Part shown: positions 1 to 61,480 of the stretch, one piece after another
Numbering within the stretch: the stretch's first letter is position 1
Layout: the number at the start of each line of letters is the position of its first letter
Source: Octopus vulgaris
Lineage: Eukaryota
Direction: 5' to 3'
NCBI GenBank assembly: GCA_951406725.2
Contig: OX597819.1
Location: 1,178,001 to 1,242,000 of the forward strand
Length of the DNA: 64,000 bases
The notes under the pieces: generated by a model
Told to the model about the DNA's origin: nothing
The model's input: only the letters and a program-made list of their open reading frames with translations
Databases searched by the model: none
Position numbers and translations under genes: made by a program

Positions 1-1659
1 CAATTAGAATTTATTATATACAATGGTTTTATCCTGAGATAGTATCTCTTTTAGATATGAGTTCAGTAGCAGTGCTGGCATTGCTAGATATTCATTTCTG
101 CCTCTTTGAACTTTGTCAATAGCCATTCTCCACTGGCAGCAGCTGCCTGCCAAGACAAAATCTGTCATTAATGATTCAGTAAAACAATGACTGGAAAAAA
201 AAAACATTGATTTTGCAATTCGCTGGTTGGCTGAATAAAAGTTTGTTATATGCAACTGCAGTTAATTAGGTTTTCCCTTATATATCACCAATTAATATAA
301 GTATGATACACAAATTACTATTTTAAGCAATGTGCTGCAATTTAGTTGCTAGATTCATAGAATTAGAAAAAAAAGAAAGCCTTTTTAATTTACACTTAGT
401 GCTTCATTTAGGTCAGCAATTTGCAAAACAGTAGATTATTTTCTCCAAGGTTAACATTGTTTTTAGAATTATCTCCATTCAGGATATCTTTGACAGGAAA
501 TTAATGTAAATAGGTGCAGGCATGGTTGTGCAGTTAAGGAGCTCACTTTCCAATCACATGGTTTTTGGGTGTTAAATGCCTTTTGAGTAAATTTGGGAAA
601 CAAAACTGTTAGTGTGTGTGTAATAAAATGTTGCACAGGAGGATGACAAAAGAATATAAGGAAAACAGGAGAAAAATTCACAAAGGATGTGGATGCTCCC
701 ACCTTTTGTCAGTTATCAACCAGAAATCATCACCATTTGCTAAACTGCTAAGTTAAAAGGATGCAAACAAATCAGTGTCCGTTCTGAAGTGGTGCTGGGG
801 ACAAACACACACACACACATATGTATGCACCATAGATTTCTTTTAGTTTCCATCTTGCAGATCCACTCACATGCTTTTATTGCCCTAGGGCTACAGCAGA
901 AGACCCTTGCCTAAGGTGCCATGCAGTGGGACTGAACTCAGGACCACAACTGTGTGTCAATTAGACTTAATTAAATAGACTGGTCAATTATGAACAACTG
1001 TCTTTTTACATAATTTCTCTATGAACAAAAAACCGAAGGATCTGATGAATTAGTTTCCTTCTTTATTGAGATTCCACCACCGACTGACTTCCTTCTCTAG
1101 CTGTCTGTCTATCATAAAACTGTATATATGGTCGTAATTACTAAGAGTTTCATTAAATTAGACAACCCTTTTTGGCATGAATAACACATTATTGGCAGCT
1201 ACTTCAATTTATAAATTACTAACTCATTAACAGTGTTGGTTTTGGTGTTATGATATACTACAGAATAAACCTATAGATTTCAGCTAACACTGTACAACTG
1301 TCTTTCTTATAAAATCTGTCTATAGGTTAGTGTTGGCTGAAATCTATAAATTTATTTTGTAGTACAATATTAATAGGTGTAGGCATGGCTGTGTGATTAA
1401 GAAGTTTGCTCAGAAATCATGTGGTTAAAGATTTGTTTCTGCTGTGTGACCATTGTCGGGTGGCATTCTGTACAATAACTACAGGTCAACCAATAGCTTG
1501 TAAGTGAAATTAGTTGACATAATTTGAAGACGCCTCATGCGTGTGGATGGTAGGCTGTGTGGTAAGAAGTTTGCTTCTCAACCACATGGTTCTCAATTTA
1601 GTCTCACAGCATGACACCTTGGGCAAGTCTCTTCTATCAGATCATTAAGAATGAATTGT

Positions 1660-4761: not shown

Positions 4762-5420
4762 GTGGGTAAATTTTGACAATTGTTATATCTTTACAATAGT
4801 GGTTAAGAAAAATTTTAGTTATTTTGATTTCATTTTTGGTTTTATTTGTAATCCTTTTAAGACTACAGGTTCACCATGGCTGTGTTAAGAAGTTAATTTT
4901 GCAACTAGGAGGTTGAGACTTCAATCCCACATTGTGGCTTCTTCGTCAAATGTTTTCTTCCCTGACTCTGGATTGACTTTGGTACTGACTGAAATTTCTG
5001 TAGACAGGAATTATGTGAGCCTGTTGGATGGATTGTTTCTGTTTTTAGGTGTTACACTTAAACTGCTATTTGGTTTTAAAACACCAATTAGCCCTTAAGT
5101 GCCTTTAGTGGAGTTCCACTGTTGCTAGTATTCATGAGAAATTTCCAGTCAGGGATAATTTCCTCTTACAAGTCTCAGAGTCCCTGAAAAGTGTCATGTT
5201 CTTCCTCTTTTCACCAATCCATTAAAAAAAATTTATACAATATTATTCTGATTATAAACTTTCATGTGGAAAAGGAAAAAGCATTGAATCAGTTGACTGA
5301 GTTTACAAATATTCAAAATTGTTGTCTTTTATATATTTTCTATTAACATTTTAAGGTTTTAACTTAAATTTTTTTAATTGTTGATAATTTTTATATGCGT
5401 TTTGCTTTTCTTAACCAAAG

Positions 5421-16747: not shown

Positions 16748-17740
16748 TTAAAATATCTGGCCATTGGTCTGCACACATAAATGCTGAGATAAATGGTTTG
16801 AACAGGAAAATGTTTTGCCACAGTGCTGGCAACCGGCTTTCTCTTCCGCATGTACCCGAGAATGTTCCCGAAGTCCACGAGAACGAGTGAAACACTTGCC
16901 ACAGCATTCACATTTGTATGGTTTCTCAGCCGTGTGTATTCTAATATGTTCTTTGAGGCTGCTAGATCTGAGAAATGCCTTCTGGCAATGCTGACACTTG
17001 AAAAGTTTTTCGTCTGTATGAATGCGAGTATGTCGTGTTAAATCCCAAGAGTTCAAAAAGGCTTTATTGCAATGTATACATGCATAAGGTTTGATTCCAG
17101 CATGCATACGCAAGTGAGATGCGAGCCGACTCGGCCGTGTGAAAGATTTAACACAATAGACACACTTGAATGTTTTTACTGTTGTGTGAATTTTTAAATG
17201 TTCTTTTAAACTACTTAGTCGTGTAAAAGCTTTAGTACAAAAAGTACAGATATGTTTTTTTTCACCGGTGTGAATTTTTACATGCCGTGAAAGTTCCCAG
17301 GAATTAAAAAATGCTTTCACACAGTGATCACATTTAAAAGTTTTGATGCCAGAGTGTATTTTCAGATGTGCATTTAAATGGCTTGTGCGTGAGAAAGCTT
17401 TTGTGCAAAGTTCACAGGAATATGGCTTCTCTTTTGTGTGCACAGCCATATGTTCTGTAAGACTGGTTGACCGTAAAAAAGATTTTTCACAAAGTTCACA
17501 ACGAAATTTTCTCTCTCCTGTGTGTATTTTCATGTGTCGGGTAAGATCCCAAGAGTTGTAGAATGCTTTCTCACACAGAGTACATTTGTGAGATTTTTCT
17601 CCAGAGTGAGTTTTCACATGCCGTAGTAAATGCGCTGAACAAGAGTAAGACTTCTCACAGAAGTTGCACTTGAATGGCTTTTCTATTTGATGCATGTCTG
17701 AATTTTTCATATGATCAACCCTACCAATGTATTTATTCAT
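16748..17740 (-). CDS. C2H2 zinc-finger protein, 330 aa, single coding exon; 10 intact fingers plus 1 degenerate, no visible effector domain
   Basis: Uninterrupted CxxC-x12-HxxxH array with TGEK-like linkers; a strong polypyrimidine/CAG acceptor upstream (exon starting at 17935) implies spliced 5'UTR exons. Confidence 0.93.
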   Translation of the reverse strand: MNKYIGRVDHMKNSDMHQIEKPFKCNFCEKSYSCSAHLLRHVKTHSGEKSHKCTLCEKAFYNSWDLTRHMKIHTGERKFRCELCEKSFLRSTSLTEHMAVHTKEKPYSCELCTKAFSRTSHLNAHLKIHSGIKTFKCDHCVKAFFNSWELSRHVKIHTGEKKHICTFCTKAFTRLSSLKEHLKIHTTVKTFKCVYCVKSFTRPSRLASHLRMHAGIKPYACIHCNKAFLNSWDLTRHTRIHTDEKLFKCQHCQKAFLRSSSLKEHIRIHTAEKPYKCECCGKCFTRSRGLREHSRVHAEEKAGCQHCGKTFSCSNHLSQHLCVQTNGQIF

Positions 17741-19107
17741 AATAAATAAATTACGTAAACTTCTTTAATATTTCACTAATAGAAAATAATCATCAGGTTT
17801 CGTTTGAGCTTCACTACATAAGCCTTAAGATTTTCCAAATGTGAATAAAGATAAACAAGAATAATTCCCCTGATACGATGTTCAGTTGGTCATTTCCAAG
17901 TCAGATAAAGACAATAGAGCAATAAATTTTCAAATCTGAAAAACCAAAAATAGAAAAAGAAATTCAAGTCAGAAGTCAAATATAAATAACAACAGCAAAT
18001 AAGTTATATGTATCTTCAAAACCTTTCTTTATAAATAATGTATAGAAATAGTGTTACACTTGGAGATGGTCATATTATGCCAGTTAAACACACACACTAT
18101 ATATTTGGTCTTCATTTCAGTTTTATCATTATTATTATTATTTTAGTTTCTTTTGTCACACATCCTGTGGCCTCTTCAGTGGCTCTCTATCCCACGTGTC
18201 TGCCTCTTGTTCTGCTTATGCCAACACTACAATCTATTTCCTAAATGGAATAAGCAGAACAAGAGGAGGTACATGGGTCAGAGAGTCAGTGAAGAGGTCA
18301 CAGGATGTGTGACAAAAGAGCTTTGACAAAGAAACAAAAATAGCAACAATAAAGATGAAGCAAAGACTAAATATATAGCGCATGTTTTTAATTAATAAAA
18401 TACGAACATCCCCAAATATAATTATGTCTGTTTCAACACTTGATTTCAGATCAAGAATCTTGCAAAACAAATACATAAACATAAAAATGTAAATAAAGAT
18501 TTCTTGAAAAAAATTATTCTCGTTTCAGTTGTTGCTCCACTGGAGAGTTTGAAAATGAAATCACTAAAACCATTCAAACAGAATCATTTCTATGGAAGTA
18601 AGGCGTTAACGCTACCTTTCCCTGCAGAGCTCCATCCTATGACTGCCATATCTCATTCTTAACATGGCCTCATATCACCATTGATTCTCCTCTCCTATCT
18701 TTGTTTGCTGCTATCTCCATCCCTACATACCTCTGATCTCCATCTCTATCACTGTATGTCCCCCCACCCAACACTCCTTCTTTAGCTATCTACCCATTCC
18801 CCACACACATACACTCACATCATCTCCCTTTTTCTTATCTATCTACAGTTAGATACAGTTCTCAACCAGGGTCCATATGACCCCTGGAGGTCTGTGCAAG
18901 CAAAATAGTAAACTGGGCATCCACAGCAGCACTTCACAAGTCCATGAAAAACTTGCAAGAAACTAAATTCCTTTCACTAACACATAACAAAGTTCAACAT
19001 AATAGTATGTAAAACTAGCAGAGGAGCATCAACCACAAGGCTTACACTGAAGCACTAAAGTACTATCTTTTTGCAAATAAATATGACCTTGTATACTGAC
19101 CACACAG

Positions 19108-19934: not shown

Positions 19935-20203
19935 AGCTCCTTTCCAACCTTTTTAATCCACCACTCATTGTCTCCTCTTCCCTGAGCTCCTTTCCAACCT
20001 TTTAATCCACCACTCATTGTCTCCTCTTCCCTGAGCTCCTTTCCAACCTTTTTAATCCACCACTCATTGTCTCCTCTTCCCTGAGCTCCTTTCCAACCTT
20101 TTTAATCCACCACTCATTGTCTCCTCTTCCCTGAGCTCCTTTCCAACCTTTTTAATCCACCACTCATTGTCTCCTCTTCCCTGAGCTCCTTTCCAACCTT
20201 TTT
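19935..20203. repeat. Minisatellite, 50-bp unit, about 5.4 near-identical copies
   Basis: AGCTCCTTTCCAACCTTTTTAATCCACCACTCATTGTCTCCTCTTCCCTG starting at 19935, 19985, 20034, 20084, 20134, partial at 20184. Confidence 0.97.
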
Positions 20204-21311: not shown

Positions 21312-21377
21312 ACATATATATGTATACATATAGATGTATATATATAGATGTATATATATATGTGGATATATATATAT

Positions 21378-23947
21378 GAGAGCCACTGACCAGATCTGTG
21401 GCTGGTGCAAAGTGCCCCTCTCAACCCAAAATAACGTGGTGGTGGTGGAACAATGTTGTAGGGCTATTAGAGAAAAGAGACAGGCTTGGAAGGACTGGAA
21501 GAATGGTAGTAGCAGGGAATTGTATCAGACTGCCAGAAGGGAAGCTAGGAGACAGGTTTATTTAGCCAGAGGGGAAGCAGATAAGAAAAAAATTGCTAAT
21601 GTTCTGCGCCATGAGGACCAAAGACTTGAGGTGTTTCGTGTTGCAAGACAGTGTGTGAGAGAGAATCGTGACGTGGTAGGAGAGAAATGTGTTCGCATGG
21701 ATGATGGCTCACTTGCGCTGAATGAGGATGCAAAGAGAGAGGTTTGGAGACGCCACTATGAAAGGCTGCTGAATAAGGAAAATGAATGGGATAAAGAGAG
21801 TCTGCCGAATGTCGACCCAACAGAGGGACCAGCTATCCGAATTGACAGTTCCTTAGTAGTTAAAGCGATTAGATGCATGAAGACAGTGAAAGCCCCAGGC
21901 CCATCAGAAATTACTGCAGAGATGCTTAAAATATCTAGTCACCCATATAGTTAACCAGGTGATACACGAAGGAGTCATACCCAATGACTGGTGTAGCAGC
22001 ATACTAGTCAACTGCTACAAAGGTAAAGGTGACGCTTTAATTACAGAGGTATCAAGCTATTGGATCAGGTAATGAAGGTTACGGAGAGGGTCATAGCCTA
22101 ACTGATTAGGGAGAGAGTCAGCTTGGATGAGATGCAGTTTGGTTTCGTGCCAAGGAAAAGCACCATCGATGCCATATTTCTGGTGAGACAGCTGCAGGAG
22201 AAATACCTAGCCAAAGATAAGCCCCTGTACCTGGCTTTCGTTGACATGGAGAAAGCCTTCGACAGGGTCCCCTGATCCCTTATCTGGTGGTCAATTAGGA
22301 AACTAGGGATAGATGAATGGTTAGTGAGAGCTGTGCAAGCCATGTACAGGGACGCTGTAAGTAAGGTGAGGGTTGGCAACGAGTACACTAAAGAATTCAG
22401 GATAGAGGTAGGGGTCCACAAAGATTCAGTCCTCAGCACCCTCCTAATTATCATAGTCCTCCAGGCAATAACGGAGGAATTCAAGACAGGATGCCCCTGG
22501 GAGCTCCTATATGCTGATGACCTTGCTCTAATTGCTGAATCACTATCAGAACTAGAGGCGAAGTTTCAAGTGTGGAGACAAGGATTAGAATCGAAGGGCC
22601 TTAAAATCAACCTAGCTAAAACCAAAGTCCTAATATGTAGGAAGGCAGGCAAATCACAAACGCCTTCAGGTAGGTGGCCCTGCTTGATCTGTAGAAAAGG
22701 CGTAGGTAGAAACTCTATAAGATGCACCAAGTGTAAGCTATGGACACATAAGAGGTGCAGCAATGTCAAAGGAAGGCTAACTGGGAAGATAGTTTTTGTA
22801 TGTGGCAGATGCTCAGGAGCAATAAACATTGAAAATGCTCAGGGACCAACTTCTGCCACATTCCAGGGAGAAAAACTAGAAATAGTTGATAGCTTCCGTT
22901 ACCTAGGTGACCAAGTCAGTAGCGGGGGTAGGTGTGCTGAAAGTGTAACTGCTAGAGTAAGAATAGCCTGGGCAAAGTTCAGAGAGCTCTTACCTCTGCT
23001 GGTGACAAAAGGCCTCTCGCTCAGAGTAAAAGGCAGACTGTATGATGCATGTGTACGAACAGCCATGCTACATGGCAGTGAAACATGGGCTGTGACTGCT
23101 GAGAATATGCGTAAGCTCGCAAGAAATGAAGCCAGTTTGCTCCGATGGATGTGTAATGTCAGTGTACATACTCGACAGAGCGTTAGTACCTTGAGAGAAA
23201 AGCTGGACCTAAGAAGCATCAGTTGTGGTGTGCAAGAGAGACGTTTGCGCTAGTATGGTCATGTGAGGAGAATGGATGAAGATAGTTGTGTGAAAAAGTG
23301 CCACACCCTAGCAGTTGAGGGAACCTGTGGACGACGTAGATCCATGAAAACCTGGGACGAGGTGGTGAAGCACGACCTTCGAACTTTAGGTCTCACTGAG
23401 GAAATTACCAGAAACCGAGACCTTTGGAAATATGCTGTGCGTGGGAAGACCCGACAGGACAAGTGAGACCATAACCCATGGCCTCTACCTGGGACGTAGC
23501 CAGTCCACTTATGCATACCTTTCCTTCTTGTGACACAAACCCTACTTGTGAAGACCTGTTGAGGCAAGTGAAAATCAAAAATCAAAAATCAAAATCGAAA
23601 TCGATCAACATCAATGGAAATTGTAGCTAGGATACCAGTGCCGGTGGCACGTAAGAGAACCTCTGAACGTGGCCGTTGCCAGTGCTGCCCCGACTGGCCT
23701 CCGTGCTGGTGGCACATAAAAAGCACCATCCGATTGTGACCGTTTGCCAGCCTCGTCTGGCACCTGTGCATGTGGCATGTAAAAAGCACCCACTACACTC
23801 ATGGAGTGGTTGGCGTTAGGAAGGGCATCCAGCTGTAGAAACACTGCCAGATCAGACTGGGCCTGGCGCAGCCTTCTGACTTCCCAGACCTCAGTTGAAC
23901 CGTCCAGCCCATGCTAACATGGAAAACGGACGTTAAACGATGATGAT
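21378..23947 (+). mobile_element. 5'-truncated RTE-clade LINE (RT + PHD finger + 3'UTR, (GAT)n tail), frameshifted
   Basis: KAPGPS, QFGFVP, AFVDMEKAFD, LLYADDLAL, FRYLG, HGSETW motifs; stops and frameshifts; (TA)n on both sides. Confidence 0.93.
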
Positions 23948-24098
23948 ATATATATACATACATGTATATATATGGATATATATATATATACATGTATGTG
24001 TAGATGCACATATATATATATAGATAGATAGATAGATGTACATGTAATATGTACACATATATACATGCATACATATATACACCCCCACACACATACAT

Positions 24099-38429: not shown

Positions 38430-39678
38430 TCATGTCATCCCATAAGTTCTATCTGATTTTCCCTTTTTTTAAATTGAATGAAATTTAAATGTATTTTACA
38501 ATGTCAAATGGAATTTAAAAAATTATTTTTATGCATTTGTGTACATTTAAACTAATTAAATATTATTTTACAGAATAATAGAATTAAAATTTCTTTGATT
38601 AAAACCCTTTCTAACATGGAAGTATCCAAAGAGCTATGTGTATAAAAAAGGAAACTCTGCAGCCAAAGTGACTCAGAACATACACTCAGTTTATGGGAAA
38701 GAATGCTTGAATGGAAGAACTTGCAGAAGATGGTTTGCAAAATTCAGAAGTGGAGATTTCAGCCTTGAAGATGAAGATCAAACAGGATGTTCAGTTGAGT
38801 TTGATGATAAGCTCCTTGAGACATTACTTGACGAAAATCCTACTTTATCAGTTGAAGAATTAGTAATAAAGCTTAGTTCAAACCATACATTTTCATTGTC
38901 ATCTTCAACAACTTAAAAAATGGGTGCCTAATGAATTATCCAAAAGCAACTGCAAATCCCGAGTTGACATCTACTCTTCTCTCCATTCTTGTGAACTCAT
39001 TTCACCCTTTTTGGATAGACTTGTGACTGGTAACGAAAAATGGATCTTCTATCGAAATGTTAAATGTCGTAAACAGTGGCTTGGCAAAAGGAAAAAAGCT
39101 CAACCACAACTGAGAAGAGAACTTCATGAGGAAAAGGTTCTTCTCTCTATCTGGTGGGATTGCAGAGGAATAATTCACTTTGAATTGTTACCACCTAATG
39201 CAACAATCAATGTTCAAGTCTACTGTCAGCAATTAGAGCGTTTGAACCAAGCTTTGAAGAAAAAAAGACCCATTTTAGTGAATAAAAAGGAGTGATGTTT
39301 CATCAGGACAATGCGCGGCCCCACACTGCAAAGATCGCATCACAGAAAATCGAAGAATTTGGTTGGGAAAAAATTCTTCATCCACCTTATTGTCCCGACC
39401 TTGCTCCTTCAGACTACCATTTGTTTCGTAGTTTACAGAATCATTTGGGGGACATAACTTTCGCAAGCCTGTGGGAGGTTGAAACTGACATTTCAGAGTT
39501 CTTCGCTTTGAAACCAAAAGAGTTTTACATTGATGGGATTAAAAAGCTTGTAAATAGATGGAAGGAAGTCATAGATAATCAAGGAAAGTACATTGATGAT
39601 TAGATTTCAATTAAATATAATATTTGATCACTTGTTTTCTTCATCCAAAATTCAGACAGAACTTATGGGATGACCTGA
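38430..39678 (+). mobile_element. Near full-length mariner (about 1.25 kb) with TIRs; transposase pseudogene
   Basis: TIRs tcatgtcatcccataagttctatctg / cagacagaacttatgggatgacctga; HTH, WVP, VTGNEKW (catalytic D to N), QDNARPH, PDLAPSDYHLF spread over frameshifted ORFs. Confidence 0.93.
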
Positions 39679-41275: not shown

Positions 41276-42381
41276 TCATCATCATCATCATCATCATCAT
41301 TTAACGTCCGCTTTCCACGCTAGCATGGGTTGGACGGTTCAACTGGGGTCTGGGGAGCCCGAAGGCTGCACCAGGCCAGTCAGATCTGGCAGTGTTTCTA
41401 CAGCTGGATGCCCTTCCTAACGCCAACCACTCCGAGAGTGTAGTGGGTGATTTTATGTGCCACCGACACAGGTGCCAGACGAGGCTGGCGAACGGCCACG
41501 CTCGGATGGTGTTTTTTATGTGCCACCAACACAGCACGCTCGGATGGTGTTTTTTATGTGCCACTGACACAGGTGCCAGACGAGGCTGGCAAACGGCCAC
41601 GCTCGGATGGTGTTTTTTATGTGCCACTGACACAGGTGCCAGGCGAGGCTGGCAGACGGCCACGCTCGGATGGTGTTTTTATGTGCCACCGACACAGGTG
41701 CCAGATGAGGCTGGCAAACGGCCACGCTCGGATGGTGTTTTTTATGTGCCACTGACACAGGTGCCAGGCGAGGCTGGCAGACGGCCACGCTCGGATGGTG
41801 TTTTTATGTGCCACCGACACAGGTGCCAGATGAGGCTGGCAAACGGCCACGCTCGGATGGTGTTTTTTATGTGCCACTGACACAGGTGCCAGGCGAAGCT
41901 GGCAGACGGCCACGCTCGGATGGTGTTTTTATGTGCCACCGACACAGGTGCCAGATGAGGCTGGCAAACGGCCACGATCGGATGGTGTTTATTACGTGCC
42001 CACAGCACGGAGGCCAGTCGATGCGGTACTGTCTACGGCCACGTTCGGATGGATTTCTTGTGTGCCACCGGCACTGGTACCACAAAGATACAAATTCCAT
42101 TGATGTTCATCTATTTTGATTTGTTTTGATTTTCACTTGTCTCAACAGGTCTTCACAAGTGTCACAAGAAGGAAGATAAGCACAGGTGGACTGACTACGT
42201 CCCAGGTAGGGGCCACGGGTTATGGCCTGACTAGTCTTGCCGGGTCTTAGGATGGTGTTTTTATGTGCCACCGACATAGGTGCCAGATGAGGCTGGCGAA
42301 CGGCCACGATCGGATGGTGTTTGTTACGTGCCCACAGCACGGAGGCCAGTCGGTGAGGTACTGGCTACGGCCATGTTCGGA
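41276..42381 (-). mobile_element. RTE 3'UTR copy with expanded internal minisatellite
   Basis: (CAT)n tail, then the inverse of the RTE 3'UTR seen at 23470-23947. Confidence 0.88.
41457..41995. repeat. 62/63-bp tandem array with 125-bp higher-order dimer
   Basis: Units start at 41457, 41520 (short), 41558, 41621, 41683, 41746, 41808, 41871, 41933; A and B variants alternate from 41621. Confidence 0.95.
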
Positions 42382-43805: not shown

Positions 43806-45950
43806 GTGAGTATAAACACTTCCTTGAAGGAAAATGTGCATTTTTTTCCCTCTTAATTTCGTTTTCATTTAAATCTTTTATTTAATCAGTTTCTGTACTC
43901 CAGTAATTCCGTTCCGGTTTAATAAAACATAATAAATATTAAGATTTCGAAATGTATAATGCTCGGTTAAGGGTCACCACAAGCTTCTGTGGTTTCTTGT
44001 ATTTCTGTAAATCGGTCGCGACCCCAACTCACCGAAGCCGAGGGAAATTATATTCAATAATGATTAGACAATTAAAAAGAAAACTGTATATATTCGGATG
44101 TGTGGTAATATAAACAATGCTGGCTGGTGACGATTCGTTTTTAAAGATCATTGTGAAGAATTCAGGCGAAAGCAAAACATTAAAACCGACCTCAAATGAA
44201 ACAAACAATCCATTATCCTACATTTCATCTACAAAACAACTTGGTTAATCTGAACGAATCGAATAACTGTTTACCAATTGGTTATGGTTATTTCGCGGGT
44301 CTCATACTCTTTAATAAAAAAAAAAAAATCATCGAAAAAATAAATTCGTTCATAAAACACATCTACAGGGAAATGACAACTTAAACATGACCACCAGGTC
44401 GAAAGCTGAAATTGAAAACTGTCGACCAAGAGTGGACTTGGAATACCTATTTCTTTATTACCCACAAGGGGCTTGATCATTTCCTATGAAGGTTGTCGCA
44501 CCTACCATAAGTCAGCTAGTGTTGATTGTTTTAGCCATATTCACAAATGCTTTTTGATACCTTTTTTGGCGACACTTTTCCTTTTATGGAGATACATTAG
44601 GTTGTGATTTTGAACAAGGAAAATCTAAGAGCTATGGTTCAAAACCCAGCAGGGACCTCGCTACAATAGTCCTCTTGCAGTGATTTTGTTATGCCACAAA
44701 CGAAATGAAAATAGGCAATAAAAATTTTTTTTAGCAATTAAAACGAGCAATTACATTACAGAAAGCTTAAGTGCATAAAAGTTGACAATATCCACAAAAT
44801 TCCACAAAGTAGTCCAATATACTTAGAGAATGTTGGACCACAAAAATTAGAATTTTACATACTAGTAATGTCTTTCTTTAGGAACAATATCTTTGTGTGC
44901 TGAGAATGTCTCTATGTATAGATGAATTTGATGTTGTGTGTGGAAATATTGTTGGCTGTATTTGCATTAGTGGAAGCTTTTTAAATTCAGTCAATAGGGT
45001 GAGACAAACTGAAGAGCAGGAAAAAGCTGAGTGTCTGTGTTAAGCAGGCACAAAAGGTCATTGATGAATAGTAGAAATATGTCACCAAATATGCTTTGTG
45101 GAAGCAGGCATAGAAACAAGATGGAATTCTAAAGTACTAACACAGATTTCCATGGTTGTAATAGTTCTTCACCCAAATCTTTCTCTATAGGAGTATTAGG
45201 ATAAGGCATCGTCGTTGTCGTCATCATTTCTATGCTGGCATGGGTTGAACTGAGGACTGGCAAGCCAGAAGGCTGCACCAGGCTCTGATCTGATCTGGCA
45301 AAGTTTCTACAGCAGGATGCCCTTCCTAACGCCAACCACTCCGAGAGTGTAGTGGGTGCTTTTTACGGTCCATCAGCATGAGGGCCAGTCTCATGGTACT
45401 GGCAATCACCATGCTCAAATGGTGTTTTTAACGAGCCACCGGCATGGAAGCCAGTCAGGCAGACCTGGCAAAGACCACGCTCAAATGGGGATTTTTATGT
45501 GCCACAGGCATGGGTACCAGTCAGGTGGAGCAATAATTTGAACCCTTAATATAATGAATGTACACAGTAGACTATCCTACAAAATCACGGCACCTAATTT
45601 CCTTTGCAGAATGGTTATCTTATGAAGAACATAAGTTAATGTCTAATGTGATACTAGTCAGTTTCAAATGCTTCAAGGACAAAAAAACAAAAAACCCTAA
45701 AGATTGCTAGGAATGCTGAGTAAATTGTAAAATCCCACCAATTTATTTGTCAGAAGAATCCCCCAATGGAGAAAGGGGATGCATCTGATATCAGTAAGTT
45801 AAGAAAGTAGCCTTGAATAATTTTAACATGCTAAAAATAGCAGCCAATGTATCCCCATACCCAGTTTTTTATAAGGTAAAGCCCTAAATTATTAATTGAC
45901 ACATTATTAATTATCTTATAACAGCAATGCCTGGAAAAATCATGGATTAA

Positions 45951-46460
45951 ATGGAAAAATGTGAGCATGAAAAGTAATATTCTTAAGATTATAAACCTAG
46001 AAAAGTACAGGACAAGTTCTTACACCTGTAAAAGTATAGGACAAACTATTACTTCAAGTAAAGTAAAGAATAAGAAACATTTTGCTTAAAACATTGCAGC
46101 TAAAATTAAAATTTGAATATTAAAACTTATTTTATTATAGTTTACAAATAACACTATACTTATTTAAGCAGAATTTGGCTAATTTACTGCCTTAAATACA
46201 GAAATAAGTGACTAATTAGACAAACTTACAAATTAGCTGAACAGTTTGTACAATAAATTTAAAAGCTGAGAACTGTAAAGTGTGATAAATTAGAAGAACT
46301 GGCATTCTTTGTTGCAATATTTTAAGTAAAAAGTTTCTTATTCTTTACTTTACAAGAAGTCATAGTTTGTCCTATACTTTTACAGGTGTAATAACTTGTC
46401 CTGGACTTTTCCAGGTTTATAATCTTAAGAATATTACTTTCCATGCTCACATTGTTCCAT
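45951..46460. mobile_element. Foldback/MITE-like element with long imperfect inverted arms (about 150 bp)
   Basis: atggaaaaatgtgagcatgaaaagtaatattcttaagattataaacct...ttgca (45951-46099) is the inverse of 46312-46460. Confidence 0.85.
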
Positions 46461-47105
46461 GTAATAATTAATGTGCATTACTTGACACTACAAGGTTGGC
46501 GTCATTTATTGAGTAAAATGTAAGAAAAGAAAAGTGAAAGTAGAAGAGAGCCAACTTGTTAAGACAAGTGGTGTTGATTCCTCTACACCTCTGAGTGGCT
46601 CTCAGGCTTGAGGTTGACTTTGTCAGTTTTTATAGTCGCAAACTGCCTTTCTAGAATTTTTAGCAAAACTGTTTAGTGGGAAAACTCATAGACTTTATAT
46701 GAGGGTTGCTGCATCTACCACAATATGTCAGCCAGTGCTGATTGGTCAAGTCATATTCACCCACGTTTTAATCTCTATGGTGACATTTTGCCTTTTTATA
46801 ATAATGCATTTGGCTGTGGTTCTGAACTGGGAAAATTTAAGAGCTAATGGTTTAAAACTCAGCAGAGTTCTTGCTGTACACTTATGCAACCTGCTGGGTG
46901 CAGTGGTCTACATTAACCTTGTAGCCTGAGTAATAAAAGCACCATTAATTTGTATAGGCATACATATCTACAGTCATATATATATATATTATAAATATAT
47001 AATGCAATATTAGCATCAAGCCGTGTAGAGAAAATATTTCTCTTATTCTTTTATTCTTAAAGGTGTGAAAACATCTTGTTTGTTCAGTGTCGCCATCTAT
47101 CAGGA

Positions 47106-47152
47106 ATCCCAAACATTGATGTTTTGAGCTTCTTGGCTCTTGTCAATGGGAT
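47106..47152 (-). ncRNA. Hammerhead ribozyme copy, likely inactive (G12A)
   Basis: Minus strand AUCCCA-UUGACAA-GAGC-CAAGAA-GCUC-AAAAC-AUCAAU-GUU-UGGGAU. Confidence 0.5.
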
Positions 47153-47210
47153 GTACCTAAGACGGGCAACTCTGAACAAACTTATAAAGCAATAGCTTTA
47201 TATAAGGTAC

Positions 47211-47257
47211 ATCCTATTGACAAGAGCCAAGAAGCTTGAAACATCGATGTCTGGGAT
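47211..47257 (+). ncRNA. Minimal type I hammerhead ribozyme (U3-A8 variant), predicted cut after C47251
   Basis: AUCCUA-UUGACAA-GAGC-CAAGAA-GCUU-GAAAC-AUCGAU-GUC-UGGGAU: stems I, II and III all pair, with GAAA and the GUC triplet intact. Confidence 0.7.
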
Positions 47258-47534
47258 TCCTGATGGATGGCGTCACTGAACAATCAGGGTATTTACATGC
47301 CTTTTTCCTGTAAGAGAAATATTTTCTCTATGGTAACTGCAGTGAATTTGCCTTTTAGCAGTTGAAATATGTCACAAATGTATTTTAACTAACCTAAATT
47401 TTGCTTATACCTAAACACTGCTTGGTGCTGACATTTCATTATTTTCTACAATCAGGCAATTTACCAGTCAACGTTGATTGTATTTTACATAAAGCTATTT
47501 CTTTATAAGTTTATAAGTTGCCTCCCTTAGGTAC

Positions 47535-47581
47535 ATCCCACTGACAAGAGCCAAGAAGCTCGAAACATTGATGTCTGAAAT
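47535..47581 (+). ncRNA. Hammerhead ribozyme copy, degenerate (C3-A8 mismatch, weakened stem I)
   Basis: AUCCCA-CUGACAA-GAGC-CAAGAA-GCUC-GAAAC-AUUGAU-GUC-UGAAAU. Confidence 0.55.
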
Positions 47582-47715
47582 TCCTGATGGATGGCAACAC
47601 TGAACAAAGTGTTTTCACACCTTTTTACGATAAGAGAAATATTTTCTCTACAGTAACTACAGTGAATTTGCCTTTTAACAGTTGAAATATGTCACAAACA
47701 TATTTTAACTTATGT

Positions 47716-48750
47716 CATCATCATTATCATCTTTTAGTGTCCATTGTCCATACTGACATGGGTTGGATGGCTTCATCAGGGCTGGCAAGCTGGAAGGCTG
47801 CACCAGACCCCAGTCTGACTTGGTTTGGTTTCCTTGACGGGATACCCTTTCTAACACCAACCACTCTGAGAGTTTAATGGGTACTGTTGTCACCGCCACA
47901 GGTGCCATTTATGTGACACCAGTATCTGTCAGGACTGCGATTTTACTTGACTTGATGGGTCTTCTCAAGCAAGACATAATGCCAAAGGTCTTGGTCATTG
48001 CCTCCATGAGGCCCAACACTTGAAAGGAGCTTTTCACATGCCACTAGCATCGGTCACTTGAGGCTCATCGCTTGAAAGCTGCTTTTAACATGTCACTGGC
48101 ATGGGTGCCCATTGCATGATACCAGCATCAGCCATGACTATGATTTCACTTGGCTTGAAGGGTCTTCTCTAGCACATCATATTGCCAAAGGTGTTGGTCA
48201 CTAGTCATTGCTTTTGTGAGGCCCAAAGTTCAAAGATCATGCTCACCATCTCAACCCATGTCTTCCTGAGTCTACCTTTACCACAGTTAGAGATCAGCAC
48301 TTTACACAGCTGTCCTCATCAATATGCATCACATGACTATACCAGCACAGTTGTCTCTTTTTCACACCACATCTGATGCCTCTTATGCCCAACTTTTCTT
48401 TCAAGATGCTCACACTCTGTCAAATATGCACACTGACATTGCACATCCAGTGAAGCATACTGGCTTCATTTCTTTCAAGCCTACGCATGTCCTCGGCTGT
48501 CACAGCTCATGTTTCATCGCCCTGTAGCATAACTGTTTGCACACAGGCATCATGCAATCTGCTTTCCACTCTGAGGGAGAGGCCCTTTGTTGCCAGCAGA
48601 GGTAGGAGCTCTCTAAACTTTGCCTACTCTTATTCTCACAGCTGTGCTCTTGGAGCATCCACTTCCTCTACTAATTTGGTTACCTAGATAACGGAAATTA
48701 TCTACTACCTCTAGCTTATCCCACTGGCAGTTGATGGAGTCTATTTTCCT
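47716..48750 (-). mobile_element. Old RTE LINE 3' portion
   Basis: (CAT)-type tail, 3'UTR and degenerate C-terminal ORF sequence matching the inverse of 22850-23450. Confidence 0.8.
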
Positions 48751-55699: not shown

Positions 55700-56840
55700 T
55701 GTGTGCAGGGTGCAGATTTGTATGTTTTATGTATGTCTTCTCATGCATATAGTTGCATATCTAGACCTGCTCATATATACTTAAATGATAAACTTCTGGA
55801 AAGTTTTACAGATTTTACAGTTTCAGTGAATGATTGGATCTGTAGTCTTCGAATTAGCTTTCTCCTCTCTGGATTTGAGAAGCCTAATTTCTCAAGATTG
55901 TTACATATCCCAGAGCCCCAATAATTACAGGTATAAACCTGAACTTGTAATCTGGATAGAGTAACTTCAGATTTCTTAATAGTTCAGCATAGGCGTTCTC
56001 TTTTTCACTGATCTTCAGCTCTGTGTAAATAGCCGCTGGGCAGCTAATTTCCACAACTGTGCACAGTCTCTCTTCCTTGCCCCAAATCATTATATCAGGT
56101 CTGTTGTGCTTACATTTTATTGAGATCTTCAACGGTACATTCCACCAGTATTCCTTTTTATTATGGGTGGCTATGTCTTCTACCATATTGTGTGTTCTTA
56201 TTTCTTTGTCCTTGGGATTATCCTTCTGACTGATTTCATTATAAAGTGTCCTAGCTACAATGTCATGTCTCATCGGTAGATAATACCGTGATGACATTTC
56301 TGGACAGCTGCTTATGATGTGGGTGATATCTTCAGTGTGAACTCCACAATGTGTGCATCGGTTGTCACATTTTACTGCATCTCTATCCCTTTTGTGCATT
56401 AGGTATTTGGTTGATATTTCCTGTTCCTGGATTGCAAGCGCATGCCCTTCATGATAGACTGCTTTGATGTTCGATGTTACTATCATCATGGAGCTTTCTA
56501 CTAACATATCCATGCATAGTCTTCTGCTCATATAGGCTCATCCATTTATCTGATGATATGTTGTGGTAACATACCTGTAACATTCCTTGTCAGATCCAGG
56601 GGAAACAGTCAAATCATTGGTGGAGATGTTACTAGTTTGGTTTATAGTTTCCCCCTTTTCACAACCATATAACAACATTTATCTTAACCAAACTCCAACC
56701 TACATCCTTTGAAAATGTTGTAATTAGGTCAAGGCTCTTTTTCATCTCATGCATATTCTTTGCATAAAGTTTTAAGTCATCCACAAAGAAACAGCGTGTA
56801 ATTTTGGTATTTCTGTTTCCTTGTGAACCAGTGAGATAGT
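55550..56840 (-). mobile_element. RLE-type non-LTR retrotransposon fragment (R4/Dong/NeSL-like)
   Basis: ORF 55884-56531: CxxC...HIISSC zinc knuckle, RHD, RPDI, VEISCP restriction-like endonuclease motifs; FVDDLK RT motif near 56780; boundaries approximate. Confidence 0.85.
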
Positions 56841-57873: not shown

Positions 57874-57902
57874 TTATATATATATATGTATATGTATATA
57901 TG

Positions 57903-60900
57903 TCATCATCATCATCGTTTAACGTCCGTTCTCCATGCTAGCATGGGTTGGATGGTTTGACTGGGGTTTGGGAAGCCAGGAGGCTGCACCATGCTCTAGT
58001 CTGATCTGGCAGTGTTTCTGTAGCTGGATGCCCTTCCTAATGCCAACCACTTCGTGAGTGTAGTGGGTGCTTTTTACATGCCACCAGCACAGGGGCCAGA
58101 AGAGGCTGGCAATGGCCATGATCAGTTGGTGCTTTTTATGTGCCACTGGCACGGGGATCATGACTACATTTGATTTTCGTTTTGATGTTGATGTACTTGA
58201 CTGAATAGGTCTTCTCAAGCACAGCATGTTGCCCTGCGATCCAAAGTACTTTTTGAATGGGCTGGGGCTGGTTATGTGAAACTGGTGTAGGATACAGCTG
58301 TGAGCTCACTTTATTTACTGGGTCTTCTCAGTCACAGCATATCTCCAGAGGTCTTGGTCTTTTGTCATTGCCTCTGTGAGGCCCAACATTCGATGGTCAT
58401 GCTTCACCACCTCATTCCATGTCTTCCTGGGTCTATCTCTACCCCAGATTCCTTCAACTGTTTCGGAGTGGCACTTCTTCATACACCTCTCCTCAACCAT
58501 CTGTAGTACATGATCGTACCAGCACAAACATCTGTCTTGCATGCCACATCCAATGCTCCTTATATCTGACATTTCTCTCAGAGTGCTTACACTCTGTCGT
58601 GTGTGCACACTGACATTACACATTCGGTGGATCATGCTAGCTTCATTTCTATTGAGCTTATGCATGTCCTCAGCAGCCATGGCCCATGTTTCACTGCCAT
58701 GAAGCATGGCAGTTCACACACATGCATCATTTAATCTACCTTTCACTCTGAGAGAGAGGCCCTTTGTCACCAGTAGGGGTAGAAGCTTTCTAAACTTTGC
58801 CCAAGCTATTCTTAGTCTAGTGGTAACACTCTCTGAGCATCCACTCCCACTACTAACTTGGTCACCTAGGTAGCGGAAGCTATCAACTACTTCTAGTTTC
58901 TTCCCCTGGAATGTGATGGAATCTGTTTTCGGAGCATCTGTGGTGTTTATTGCCCCTGTGCATCTGCCGCGCATGGAAGCTATCTTCCCAGTTAATCTTC
59001 CTTTGATGTTGCTGCACCTCTTATGTGTCCATAGTATACACTGGATACATCTTATGGAGTTTCTACCTACACCTTTTGTACAGATTGAGCAGGGCCACCT
59101 ATCTGAAGGGGTGTATGATGTGTTCACCTTCCTACTTACTAGAACTTTGGTTTTTGCAACATTAACTCTAAGGCCTTTTGATTCTAAACCTTGCTTCCAC
59201 ACCTGAAATTTCTTCTCTAGTTCTGGTAGTGATTCAGCTATGAGGGCCAGGTCATCAACATAGAGGAGCTCCCAGGGGCAACCTGTCTTGAATTCCTCTG
59301 TTATTGCCTGGAGGACTATGATGAATAAAAGGGGATTGAGGGCTGATCCTTGGTGGACCCCTACTTCTACCTGGAATTCTTCACTATACTCATTGCCAAT
59401 CCTAACCTTACTAATGGCCTCTCTGTATAGGGCCTGTACAGCCCTTATTAGCCATTCGTCAATCTCCAGTTTCCACATTGTCCACCAGATAAGGGACTGA
59501 GGGATCCTGTCAAAGGCTTTCTCCAAGTCCACAAAAGCTAAGTATAGGGGTTTATCTTTGGCTAGGTATTTCTCCTGTAATTGCTGCACCAGGAATATAG
59601 CATCAGTGGTGCCTCTACCTGGCACAAAACCAAACTGCATCTCATCTAAGCAGACTCTCTCCCTAATGAGATGAACTATGACCCTCTCCATGACCTTCAT
59701 CACCTGATCCAGCAGTTTGATACCCATGTAGTTATTTCTATCTAAAGCATTACCTTTACCCTTGTAGCAGTTGACTATGGTGCTGCTACGCCAGTCATTG
59801 GGTATGACTCCATCATGAACTACTTGGTTTACAATGCTGGTGACTAGGCCATAGCCCACACCACCAGATATTTTAAGCATCTCAGCAGTGATTCCTGATG
59901 GGCCGGGGGCTTTTCCTGGCTTCATATCCTTAATTGCTGTCTATTCAGATAGCTGGTCCCTCTACTGGGTCAACATTTGGCAGGTTCTCCTCCTCCCATT
60001 CATTCTCCACGTTCAGCAGTTTCATAATGGCTTCACCAAGCCTCTTTCTTTTCCGAAACATTAAAAGCAAGTGCACCATCATCCATGTGGACACATTTCT
60101 CTCCTGTGACATCACAATTTTCTCTCACACACTGTCTTTCAATCTGAAATATTTCAGTTCTTTGGTCCTCACGTCGCTGGACATTGGCAAACTTCTTCTT
60201 TTCTCCTTCACCATTGGCTATGTATACCTGCCGCCCAGCCTCCCTTTTGGCTACCTGGTACAGTTCTCTGCTACCCCCACCCTTCCAGGCTTTCCAGGCA
60301 TGTTTCTTTGCTCTAATGGCTTTGTCTACTGTACTATTCCTCCACCACATTACTCTAGGTCTGGAAGGGACTTTGCACCACCCACAGGCTTGGTCTGTGG
60401 CACTCAGCAAGCTGTCCCGTAGGAATTTCCAGCTACCTTCTATGTCCGATGTCTGTAGCTCCTCTCTCTCATCAGATTTCTTGATGAGGATGTCCCTAAA
60501 TCTCTGACCATGTGAGGGGTTCTTTAGCTTCCAAATCCTTCTTTTCTGGATTGGTCTACTTCTTGGCATCCTTCTGGCCTCAAGCCTAAAGTCACTAATG
60601 ACTAGCTTATGTTGGGGGATACATTTTTCACCTGGGAGGGTCTTTGTATTTAAGAGCAACCCTGCATTGCGCTGTCTGGTGAGGATGAAATCAATCTGGC
60701 TTGCAGAGTCACCTGATTGATAGGTTATCAGGTGGCTGTCTGGCTTCCTGAAGTTAGTGTTGCAGATTAAAAGGTTGCATGCATCACAGAACTCCAGTAG
60801 CCTAGATCCTTCATTGTTTCGGGAACCAATACCATGGCCCCCGTGTACACCAGTGAAGATACCGGATTGCCGCCCAACATGCCCATTAAAATCTCCAGCT

Positions 60901-61480
60901 GCAAAGATGAGGTCATTGCCACTCGTCTTTGAGGTAGCCTGTAGAAGGGTATCATAAAAATGGTCCTTCCATTCATTTGGTAGGCCCACTTGTGGGGTGT
61001 AGGCAGAGATAATTGTAGCTGTGCTGTTCTGCAGGACTAGCCTGAGCTTAAGCACTCTATCACATACCCTCTATGACTTTATCTACCTATTTCTCCACAA
61101 ACAGTATGCCTATACCCCCTACTCCATCCATGTTACCTTGCCAGAAGATTTTATACCTATGTGCCTTGCCTGTGAGGACCCTAGCTGAAGCTCCTCTCCA
61201 CCTTAACTCTTGTATGCAGCATACATCAACATGTCTCTTTTCAAGCATCTCTACAGTCTCACTAGACCTGCCTTTCAGTGTGCCTACATTGACAGTGCCA
61301 ATTCTGAAAACTGGGAAAGGAATGTTGGGTGAGGCTTGGGGAGGAGGGATGTTATTCAGTGCCTGAAAAGAAGAGGGAGGAGGTTGTTGTGTTCGTTTTT
61401 TAGGCATGCTTCATCTGTTCTCACTTCCAACCTCACATCATTCAAACATTCAAGCATGTTAAGATTAAGATTGTTTCCCC
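57903..61480 (-). mobile_element. Near full-length RTE-clade LINE (APE endonuclease + RT + PHD), inactivated
   Basis: RIGTVNVGTL, CIQE, GDFNGHVG, QIDFIL, PQHKLV (APE); KAPGPS, QFGF, DLEKAFD, YVDD (RT); split by frameshifts and stops; (CAT)n tail; 5' boundary approximate. Confidence 0.93.

Follow-up and report, generated by a model that had tools for sequence, protein, structure and literature searches.

At positions 47024-47710 of the window, the 64,000-nt stretch of octopus DNA analyzed here, lies a short repeat array that carries three copies of a type I hammerhead motif, two in tandem (A and B) and one inverted (C). The array and its neighbor comprise the following features:

47205..47528, + strand: full 324-nt repeat unit (unit A), 35.5% GC
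47529..47710, + strand: second, partial unit of about 182 nt, 87% identical to unit A
47024..47211, - strand: inverted partial unit, covering about -50 to +135 as counted from the start of the hammerhead
47205..47211, no strand: 7-bp overlap (microhomology) at the inversion junction, common to the inverted copy and unit A
47205..47263, + strand: hammerhead copy A, type I, with U3 at 47217, C7, A8 at 47222, G12 at 47238 and C17 at 47251
47529..47587, + strand: hammerhead copy B, type I, with C3 at 47541 opposite A8 at 47546, a mismatch
47100..47158, - strand: hammerhead copy C, type I, inverted, with U3 at 47146 and A8 at 47141
47078..47181, - strand: extended stem I of copy C, 24 bp past the bulge plus the 6-bp helix I
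47241..47250, + strand: perfect 10-nt palindrome of copy A, running through helix III and loop 3, with a self-duplex of -12.9 kcal/mol
47711..48750, - strand: dispersed LINE-derived repeat outside the element, adjoining the right end of the array

Copy A and copy B start 324 nt apart, and the array totals 1.6 units. The inverted unit and unit A together form an inverted repeat with 100-bp arms (86% complementary) and a 46-nt spacer. There are no open reading frames of 90 amino acids or more over 47024-47710. The LINE-derived repeat may have cut off the right end of the array, and no target-site duplication of 8 bp or more is found to the right, where the array adjoins this other repeat. Searches of the window with blastn, nhmmer and a covariance model recovered no additional copies of the family, which is thus confined there to one locus.

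The window contains animal DNA with LINE, DDE-transposase and C2H2 zinc-finger sequences. A MITE-like inverted repeat (45946-46465) lies about 560 bp to the left of the element; its 158-bp arms are 91% complementary and flank a spacer of 204 nt. Broken LINE copies with RT and endonuclease domains occur at 57899-61410 (- strand) and 21334-23950 (+ strand), and the LINE 3' end, which recurs in the window more often than any other dispersed repeat, supplied 11 copies for rate calibration. Remnants of a broken DDE (mariner-like) transposase are present at 38599-39603 (+ strand), and a 338-aa open frame of tandem C2H2 zinc fingers at 16748-17764 (- strand). A 217-aa frame at 55884-56537 (- strand) has a CCHC-like motif followed by a PD-D-type stretch and no Pfam match; presumably it resembles the endonuclease end of site-specific LINEs. 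Two young tandem arrays are also found, one with a 63-bp unit in 7.4 copies and intact CpGs (41451-42000) and one with a 50-bp unit in 5.4 copies of 99% identity (19935-20203).

Structure of the hammerhead copies

In copy A, helix I pairs ATCCTA (47211-47216) with TGGGAT (47252-47257), helix II pairs GAGC with GCTT beneath a CAAGAA loop, and helix III pairs ACA with TGT beneath the palindromic loop TCGA. The core segment is TTGACAA (47217-47223), and cleavage is predicted between 47251 and 47252. All of its helix positions can pair (6/6, 4/4 and 3/3), two of them as G-U wobbles (U2.2-G1.2 and G10.1-U11.1), and it is the only copy with every catalytic nucleotide and all three helices. The core nucleotides U4, G5, A6, A9, G12, A13 and A14, the A15.1-U16.1 pair and H17 are complete in copies A and B. 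Copy C has Watson-Crick pairs at 13 of 13 positions together with two core lesions, A for G12 (47125) and U for C17 (47112), and in copy B helix I is interrupted by two C-A mismatches (47578-47579). The G10.1-C11.1 pair is G-C in copies B and C and, by CpG decay, G-U in copy A, and the loop 3 palindrome is broken in B and C. If the copy A palindrome formed its modeled self-duplex, it would permit a double-hammerhead fold.

C7 and A8 occur in all three copies, whereas position 3 is U in copies A and C and C in copy B. Positions 3 and 8 are consequently a Watson-Crick U-A combination in A and C and a C-A combination in B, and this copy-by-copy reading of the core agrees with what the earlier note had described. 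The same note had proposed that stem I extends by pairing AGG (47205-47207) with CCU (47259-47261) across a UAC/U internal loop, which is borne out in copy A. This pairing is the stub of a longer stem: copy C preserves the upstream strand that copy A lost at the junction, and its stem I goes 24 bp past the bulge. The extended stem I region of copy C is unusually stable (z = -6.65; 0/200 shuffles as low), and its hammerhead-constrained fold (-41.0 kcal/mol) is close to its minimum (-42.7 kcal/mol). The nucleotides of the contact between the stem I bulge and loop II, for which a conserved Hoogsteen pair has been described (PMC2553840), are present in copy A (U 47258 and A 47233) and are the same in B and C.

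The hammerhead motif at the three copies is not a chance occurrence, because a covariance model (R1) that is free of window sequences scores them at 43.8, 42.4 and 40.2 bits (E = 9e-11 to 1e-9). R1 was built from 11 hammerhead sequences of outside contigs; helices I and II covary in its alignment, and 0/500 shuffles reach as high a value. The earlier note had identified and numbered the motif correctly. The next R1 match in the window has 14.8 bits. At the gathering score, Rfam gives 0 matches in the whole window, and there is one sub-threshold match of Hammerhead_HH9 to copy B (24.8 bits, where the cut-off is 52; E = 0.0012). Rfam matches to MIR841 and WsnRNA46 are caused by the inverted repeat and not by homology, and a relaxed-scan match at 4773, in an AT-rich stretch, was dismissed as low complexity.

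Probable origin and decay of the insertion

We are confident that the locus holds a decayed retrozyme-like insertion. Its tandem 324-nt unit, 35.5% GC content, lack of an ORF and canonical type I hammerhead make a non-LTR retrozyme the likely source. A circular fold of the monomer from cut site to cut site (47252-47575) has -71.1 kcal/mol (z = -2.6; 0/100 shuffles as low), and circular folds of four outside units have z scores from -2.0 to -6.1. Outside relatives that share the AGGUAC and UUCCUG flanks occur in tandem repeats of 336-345 nt. An inverted 5'-truncated copy upstream of the hammerhead recurs at two outside loci (L018, 477-542 and 695-760; L014, 332-382 and 695-760; main-match strand), and it lies directly upstream there, as at the window locus.

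A different reading, independent of the question of positions 3 and 8, holds that the repeat consists of pseudo-LTR fragments of an autonomous Penelope-like element and is no retrozyme. A tandem plus inverted layout is described as a Penelope signature (10.1101/2021.04.23.441226) and is present here with just 1.6 units, and the published animal U3-A8 family sits in Penelope pseudo-LTRs (PMC4209133). However, the unit is without an ORF, and its canonical hammerhead carries the nucleotides for a loop-bulge contact, whereas most Penelope elements have minimal hammerheads. GIY-YIG is also absent by Pfam from the 8 ORFs scanned among the 83 of the window. On balance this reading has a slim chance of being correct.

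If the locus is a retrozyme insertion, then its founder was most likely a multimeric or circular non-LTR retrozyme RNA that a Penelope-like enzyme reverse-transcribed into the genome. The end of the cDNA would have folded back at the 7-bp microhomology and so produced the inverted copy. RNA of an active family would cleave itself after C17. The contact between the stem I bulge and loop II, in which U1.7 meets the final A of that loop, would assist cleavage, as would helix III palindrome pairing between neighboring units. By analogy with described retrozymes (PMC7229834), 324-nt monomers would be released and then circularize.

The three copies are neutral fossils, and nothing at the locus is kept by selection, because G12, C17, C11.1 and helix I are damaged among them. 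Therefore, any compensation between positions 3 and 8 must stem from the founder. Copies B and C are predicted to be dead; G12A, the lesion type of copy C, lowers the cleavage rate about a million-fold (PMC2553840). The minimum-energy fold of copy A alone is not the hammerhead (-5.1 versus -12.5 kcal/mol; z = -0.59), and its long stem is lost at the inversion junction. In a read-through transcript, copies A and C have a predicted fold as a 100-bp hairpin of -172 kcal/mol. The copy A ribozyme would thus, according to these models, be weak or be trapped in a hairpin with copy C. The copies differ from each other almost equally (71, 72 and 70 of 79 positions identical in pairwise comparisons), which is in line with a single insertion event. 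Gene conversion between the inverted arms was considered for the shared U3 and rejected, since these arms have no excess of identity (72/79 versus 71 and 70).

We estimated decay from a 124-column ungapped three-way block with 5 recognizable CpG sites. Its non-CpG changes amount to 7 C>T/G>A per 120 G/C site-copies and 0 T>C/A>G per 180 A/T site-copies; this count omits CpG sites, two gapped stretches and positions 3, 7 and 8. Deamination-type changes appear to be biased by strand (47205-47710 and 47024-47211), being mostly C>T in copy A and mostly G>A (element sense) in copies B and C, in small numbers. Octopus methylation has been reported to spare transposons and to mark gene bodies (PMC9476566). 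The decay at this locus is read from the sequence itself and is independent of that reported pattern.

Possible inheritance of the U3-A8 pair

A tertiary C3-G8 pair is established for the hammerhead core (PMC3884650). The earlier note suggested that U3-A8 may be a compensated pair of the whole family. Two of the three copies do have this pair, and the core sequences suggest, with a probability just short of even, that the founder RNA carried it as well; for the founder it is not established. An inherited U3-A8 is about as likely as mutation damage. The note correctly framed these as the two alternatives, but its version of the damage scenario placed both changes before duplication, which still requires a U-to-C change in copy B. 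CpG decay of G8 combined with two parallel C-to-T changes after copying is the stronger rival.

By parsimony, a U3 founder needs 1 change at position 3 and a C3 founder needs 2. At the middle T>C rate, a U3-A8 founder is favored over a C3-G8 founder by a likelihood ratio of 12-21 (full range, 5-146), and over a C3-A8 founder by 1-2. A T>C rate of 0.037 from the 11 LINE-end copies is ruled out by the element's own 0/180 (P = 0.001), and therefore the highest likelihood ratios are set aside. With a prior of 2-10% for a U3-A8 founder, which is a judgement, the posterior without further sites is 0.16-0.64 (0.16-0.46 for a prior of 2-5%). If U3-A8 is inherited, then copy B would have acquired its C3 afterwards by point mutation. 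This U-to-C change is of a rare kind, since it would be the only T>C/A>G among the 180 A/T site-copies of the block.

The main alternative is a founder with an ordinary CUGACGA core. CpG decay would have turned G8 into A in every copy (or in two lineages), copies A and C would each have gained T in place of C3 on their own, and the apparent pair would have come about by coincidental damage. When bacterial and archaeal assemblies were scanned with a pattern that leaves positions 3, 7 and 8 free, 27 matches came up at 25 loci in about 6 families; many of these loci, on short or AT-rich contigs, are presumed to be eukaryotic DNA. Their cores are C3-G8 in 26/27 cases, C3-C8 in 1/27 and U3-A8 in 0/27, mostly as CUGACGA, and the C7 of 23/27 matches makes a CpG at positions 7-8 the norm of the group. 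CpG depletion also fits this founder. The observed/expected CpG ratio is 0.35 for the window as a whole and 0.33 for the element, and 11 of the 15 CpG states in the block have decayed, 7 of them to CA (4 CG, 4 TG and 7 CA, with no site the same in all three copies). The absence of any other T>C in the block and the unselected condition of the copies point the same way, and about 0.5 parallel C>T columns are expected in the block by chance. On the other side, this founder requires 4-5 separate changes at two paired positions and has a likelihood 12-21 times below that of an inherited U3-A8. Although the CpG sites of the block decayed separately in each copy, position 7-8 is CA in 3/3 copies, with a chance of 0.05 under independent decay (0.14 if B and C share a branch). 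The three recognizable CpG decays of copy A in the block are all TG and none CA. We regard the CUGACGA founder as doubtful yet well worth considering, with a probability clearly under one-half.

A less probable alternative is that the template already had a broken C3-A8 core, a mismatch that the hammerhead is not known to tolerate. This could have been a decayed passenger unit, or a local duplication could have followed the decay of G8; copy B would then be unchanged, and A and C would have gained U3 afterwards or have it from a common ancestor. One event would account for A8 in 3/3 copies, and the likelihood is within 1-2 fold of that for a U3-A8 founder. A Penelope-like protein inserted in vitro without need of hammerhead cleavage (PMC11167929), which leaves room for a dead founder. 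However, a C3-A8 template needs either two C-to-T changes at one site or a shared ancestry of A and C, of which the pairwise identities show no sign, and the circular-RNA route would be expected to select against a dead core. We therefore consider it improbable. The remotest alternative, to which we assign next to no weight, is that A8 is an RNA-editing target (cephalopods are known for heavy RNA editing), such that A-to-I editing would restore C3-I8 in copy B and switch the ribozyme on: copy B does have C3 opposite A8 and long double-stranded RNA is predicted to be possible at the locus, but its helix I is broken as well and 2/3 copies have U3.

One further site of the window bears on the choice between an inherited U3-A8 and damage:

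75..131, - strand: site D, possible distant hammerhead relic, with U3 at 119, A8 at 114, G12 at 98 and C17 at 87

Site D was found as the next R1 match (69-134, - strand; E = 0.059), and its core is UUGACAA, as in copies A and C. Also present are a correctly spaced CAAAGA loop, GAAA, UC and 5/6 pairs of helix I, three of which differ from the element on both sides. It fits an outside-derived descriptor that is blind at positions 3, 7 and 8 and that 0/1,200 Markov windows fit (68 fit the sequence pattern alone), for an expected rate of 2e-4 to 3e-3 per window, with pairing thresholds that were set after the site was seen. Site D has no Rfam hammerhead match, no flank similarity to the element and no extended stem (z = -0.10), and it lacks an in-register G10.1-C11.1 pair and a UAC bulge. 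It is possibly a fourth hammerhead, unrelated to the element of the three copies. Weighted by judgement as a factor of about 2, site D changes the posterior for a U3-A8 founder to 0.28-0.78; the widest range with this site included is 0.28-0.88. A CUGACGA founder leaves it unexplained, unless D is a chance match or equally decayed.

CpG decay and compensation are not exclusive explanations, because U3-A8 is reachable from CUGACGA by two deamination-type changes. They differ in the place of the changes, which is either the lineage or the dead copies. In the lineage, G8 could have changed to A at the CpG and C3 then to U, so that U3-A8 would replace the C3-G8 tertiary pair and hold the 2'-OH of nucleotide 8 in place. 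A broader proposal is that a lineage of canonical, tertiary-stabilized hammerheads in this genome, comprising the 324-nt retrozyme, site D and possibly other families, fixed a U3-C7-A8 core by a host-driven route in which C3-to-U rescued the CpG loss of G8. We consider this proposal unlikely, though not fanciful. If true, the rescue also takes a CpG hot spot out of the catalytic core, and U3-C7-A8 families would be invisible to CUGANGA descriptors and fall below Rfam thresholds.

If the founder did carry U3-A8, then the variant core of minimal Penelope hammerheads extends to a canonical retrozyme hammerhead, and an unannotated retrozyme family is added to a lineage where we found none described. 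It would also be a natural case of host CpG mutation pressure reshaping a ribozyme catalytic core. Otherwise, the locus is a retrozyme fossil of the ordinary sort and a warning that CpG decay can pass for covariation in a comparison of only three copies.

Comparison with known hammerhead systems

A U3-A8 pair and the resulting descriptor blind spot are already published, whichever origin holds here. The suggestion that CUGANGA-based searches miss a rare core is therefore true and not new (PMC3088659, PMC4209133). Natural U3-A8 covariation was described, with activity in vitro, for several hammerheads (Perreault et al. 2011, PMC3088659); the covariation is the same as here, and the passage describing it there draws no tie to retrozymes or CpG decay. 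Our literature search, which covered PMC7229834, PMC3088659 and PMC4209133 apart from their supplements, found no published cephalopod retrozyme and no published canonical retrozyme hammerhead with U3-A8, and one file of PMC10085705 gave no match either. The giant squid genome report lists 235 hammerhead 1 matches, given there with no detail (PMC6962438).

The Rfam models Hammerhead_HH9 (RF02275) and Hammerhead_1 (RF00163) share their helix lengths, UAC bulge and CAANNA loop II with the window copies, but both have C3-G8, and the copies fall under both gathering scores. Among the outside scan matches, two groups of loci (L008, L009, L010, L015, L017, L020 and L022; L003, L011, L013, L016, L021 and L023) have AGGUAC before and UUCC after helix I, C7 and a period of 336-345 nt. 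In contrast to the window copies, these families have a C3-G8 core, and their similarity to the window unit is confined to the hammerhead. Two animal-type hammerhead repeat families (336-345 nt) occur on short scaffolds of marine bacterial assemblies (L002-L003, L008-L011, L013, L015-L017 and L020-L023), which are probably eukaryotic DNA, and one family on such scaffolds has three extra A residues between C17 and helix I. An exact family-specific pattern had 0 matches in bacterial and archaeal genomes. A blastn search of the element against phages returned 6 records with only short chance matches outside the hammerhead, and a search against plasmids returned none.

The element shares most of its features with animal non-LTR retrozymes (Cervera & de la Pena 2020, PMC7229834; Li et al. 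2026, 10.64898/2026.07.22.740005). Both have a noncoding tandem unit in the 150-450 bp range with GC below 50%, one canonical type I hammerhead per unit, a short palindromic helix III and a self-paired monomer. The window locus differs in having A8 in all copies and U3 in two, and in consisting of 1.6 units plus an inverted copy, all damaged, with no target-site duplication found. Retrozymes have been proposed to derive from Penelope-like elements (10.64898/2026.07.22.740005), and an inverted 5'-truncated copy is described as typical of Penelope-like insertions (10.1101/2021.04.23.441226).

The closest published parallel to the core itself is in the Cercyon Penelope-like elements of Schistosoma mansoni, where U3-A8 replaces C3-G8 and is missed by a standard descriptor, as here (PMC4209133). 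The variant that the authors' descriptor missed accounts for about 1,300 matches in Schistosoma Penelope elements, compared with some 2,000 minimal motifs of the standard kind (PMC4209133). Opposite-strand pairs of Cercyon minimal hammerheads 100-700 bp apart are reported there, and the window locus likewise has an inverted copy. The Cercyon motifs are minimal and sit in pseudo-LTRs, with a helix II of 7-8 bp, a helix I of 4-5 bp and an ill-defined loop 1 (PMC4209133), whereas in the hammerhead described here helix I has 6 bp and helix II 4 bp, there is a hexaloop with a bulge contact, and the motif is embedded in a short repeat.
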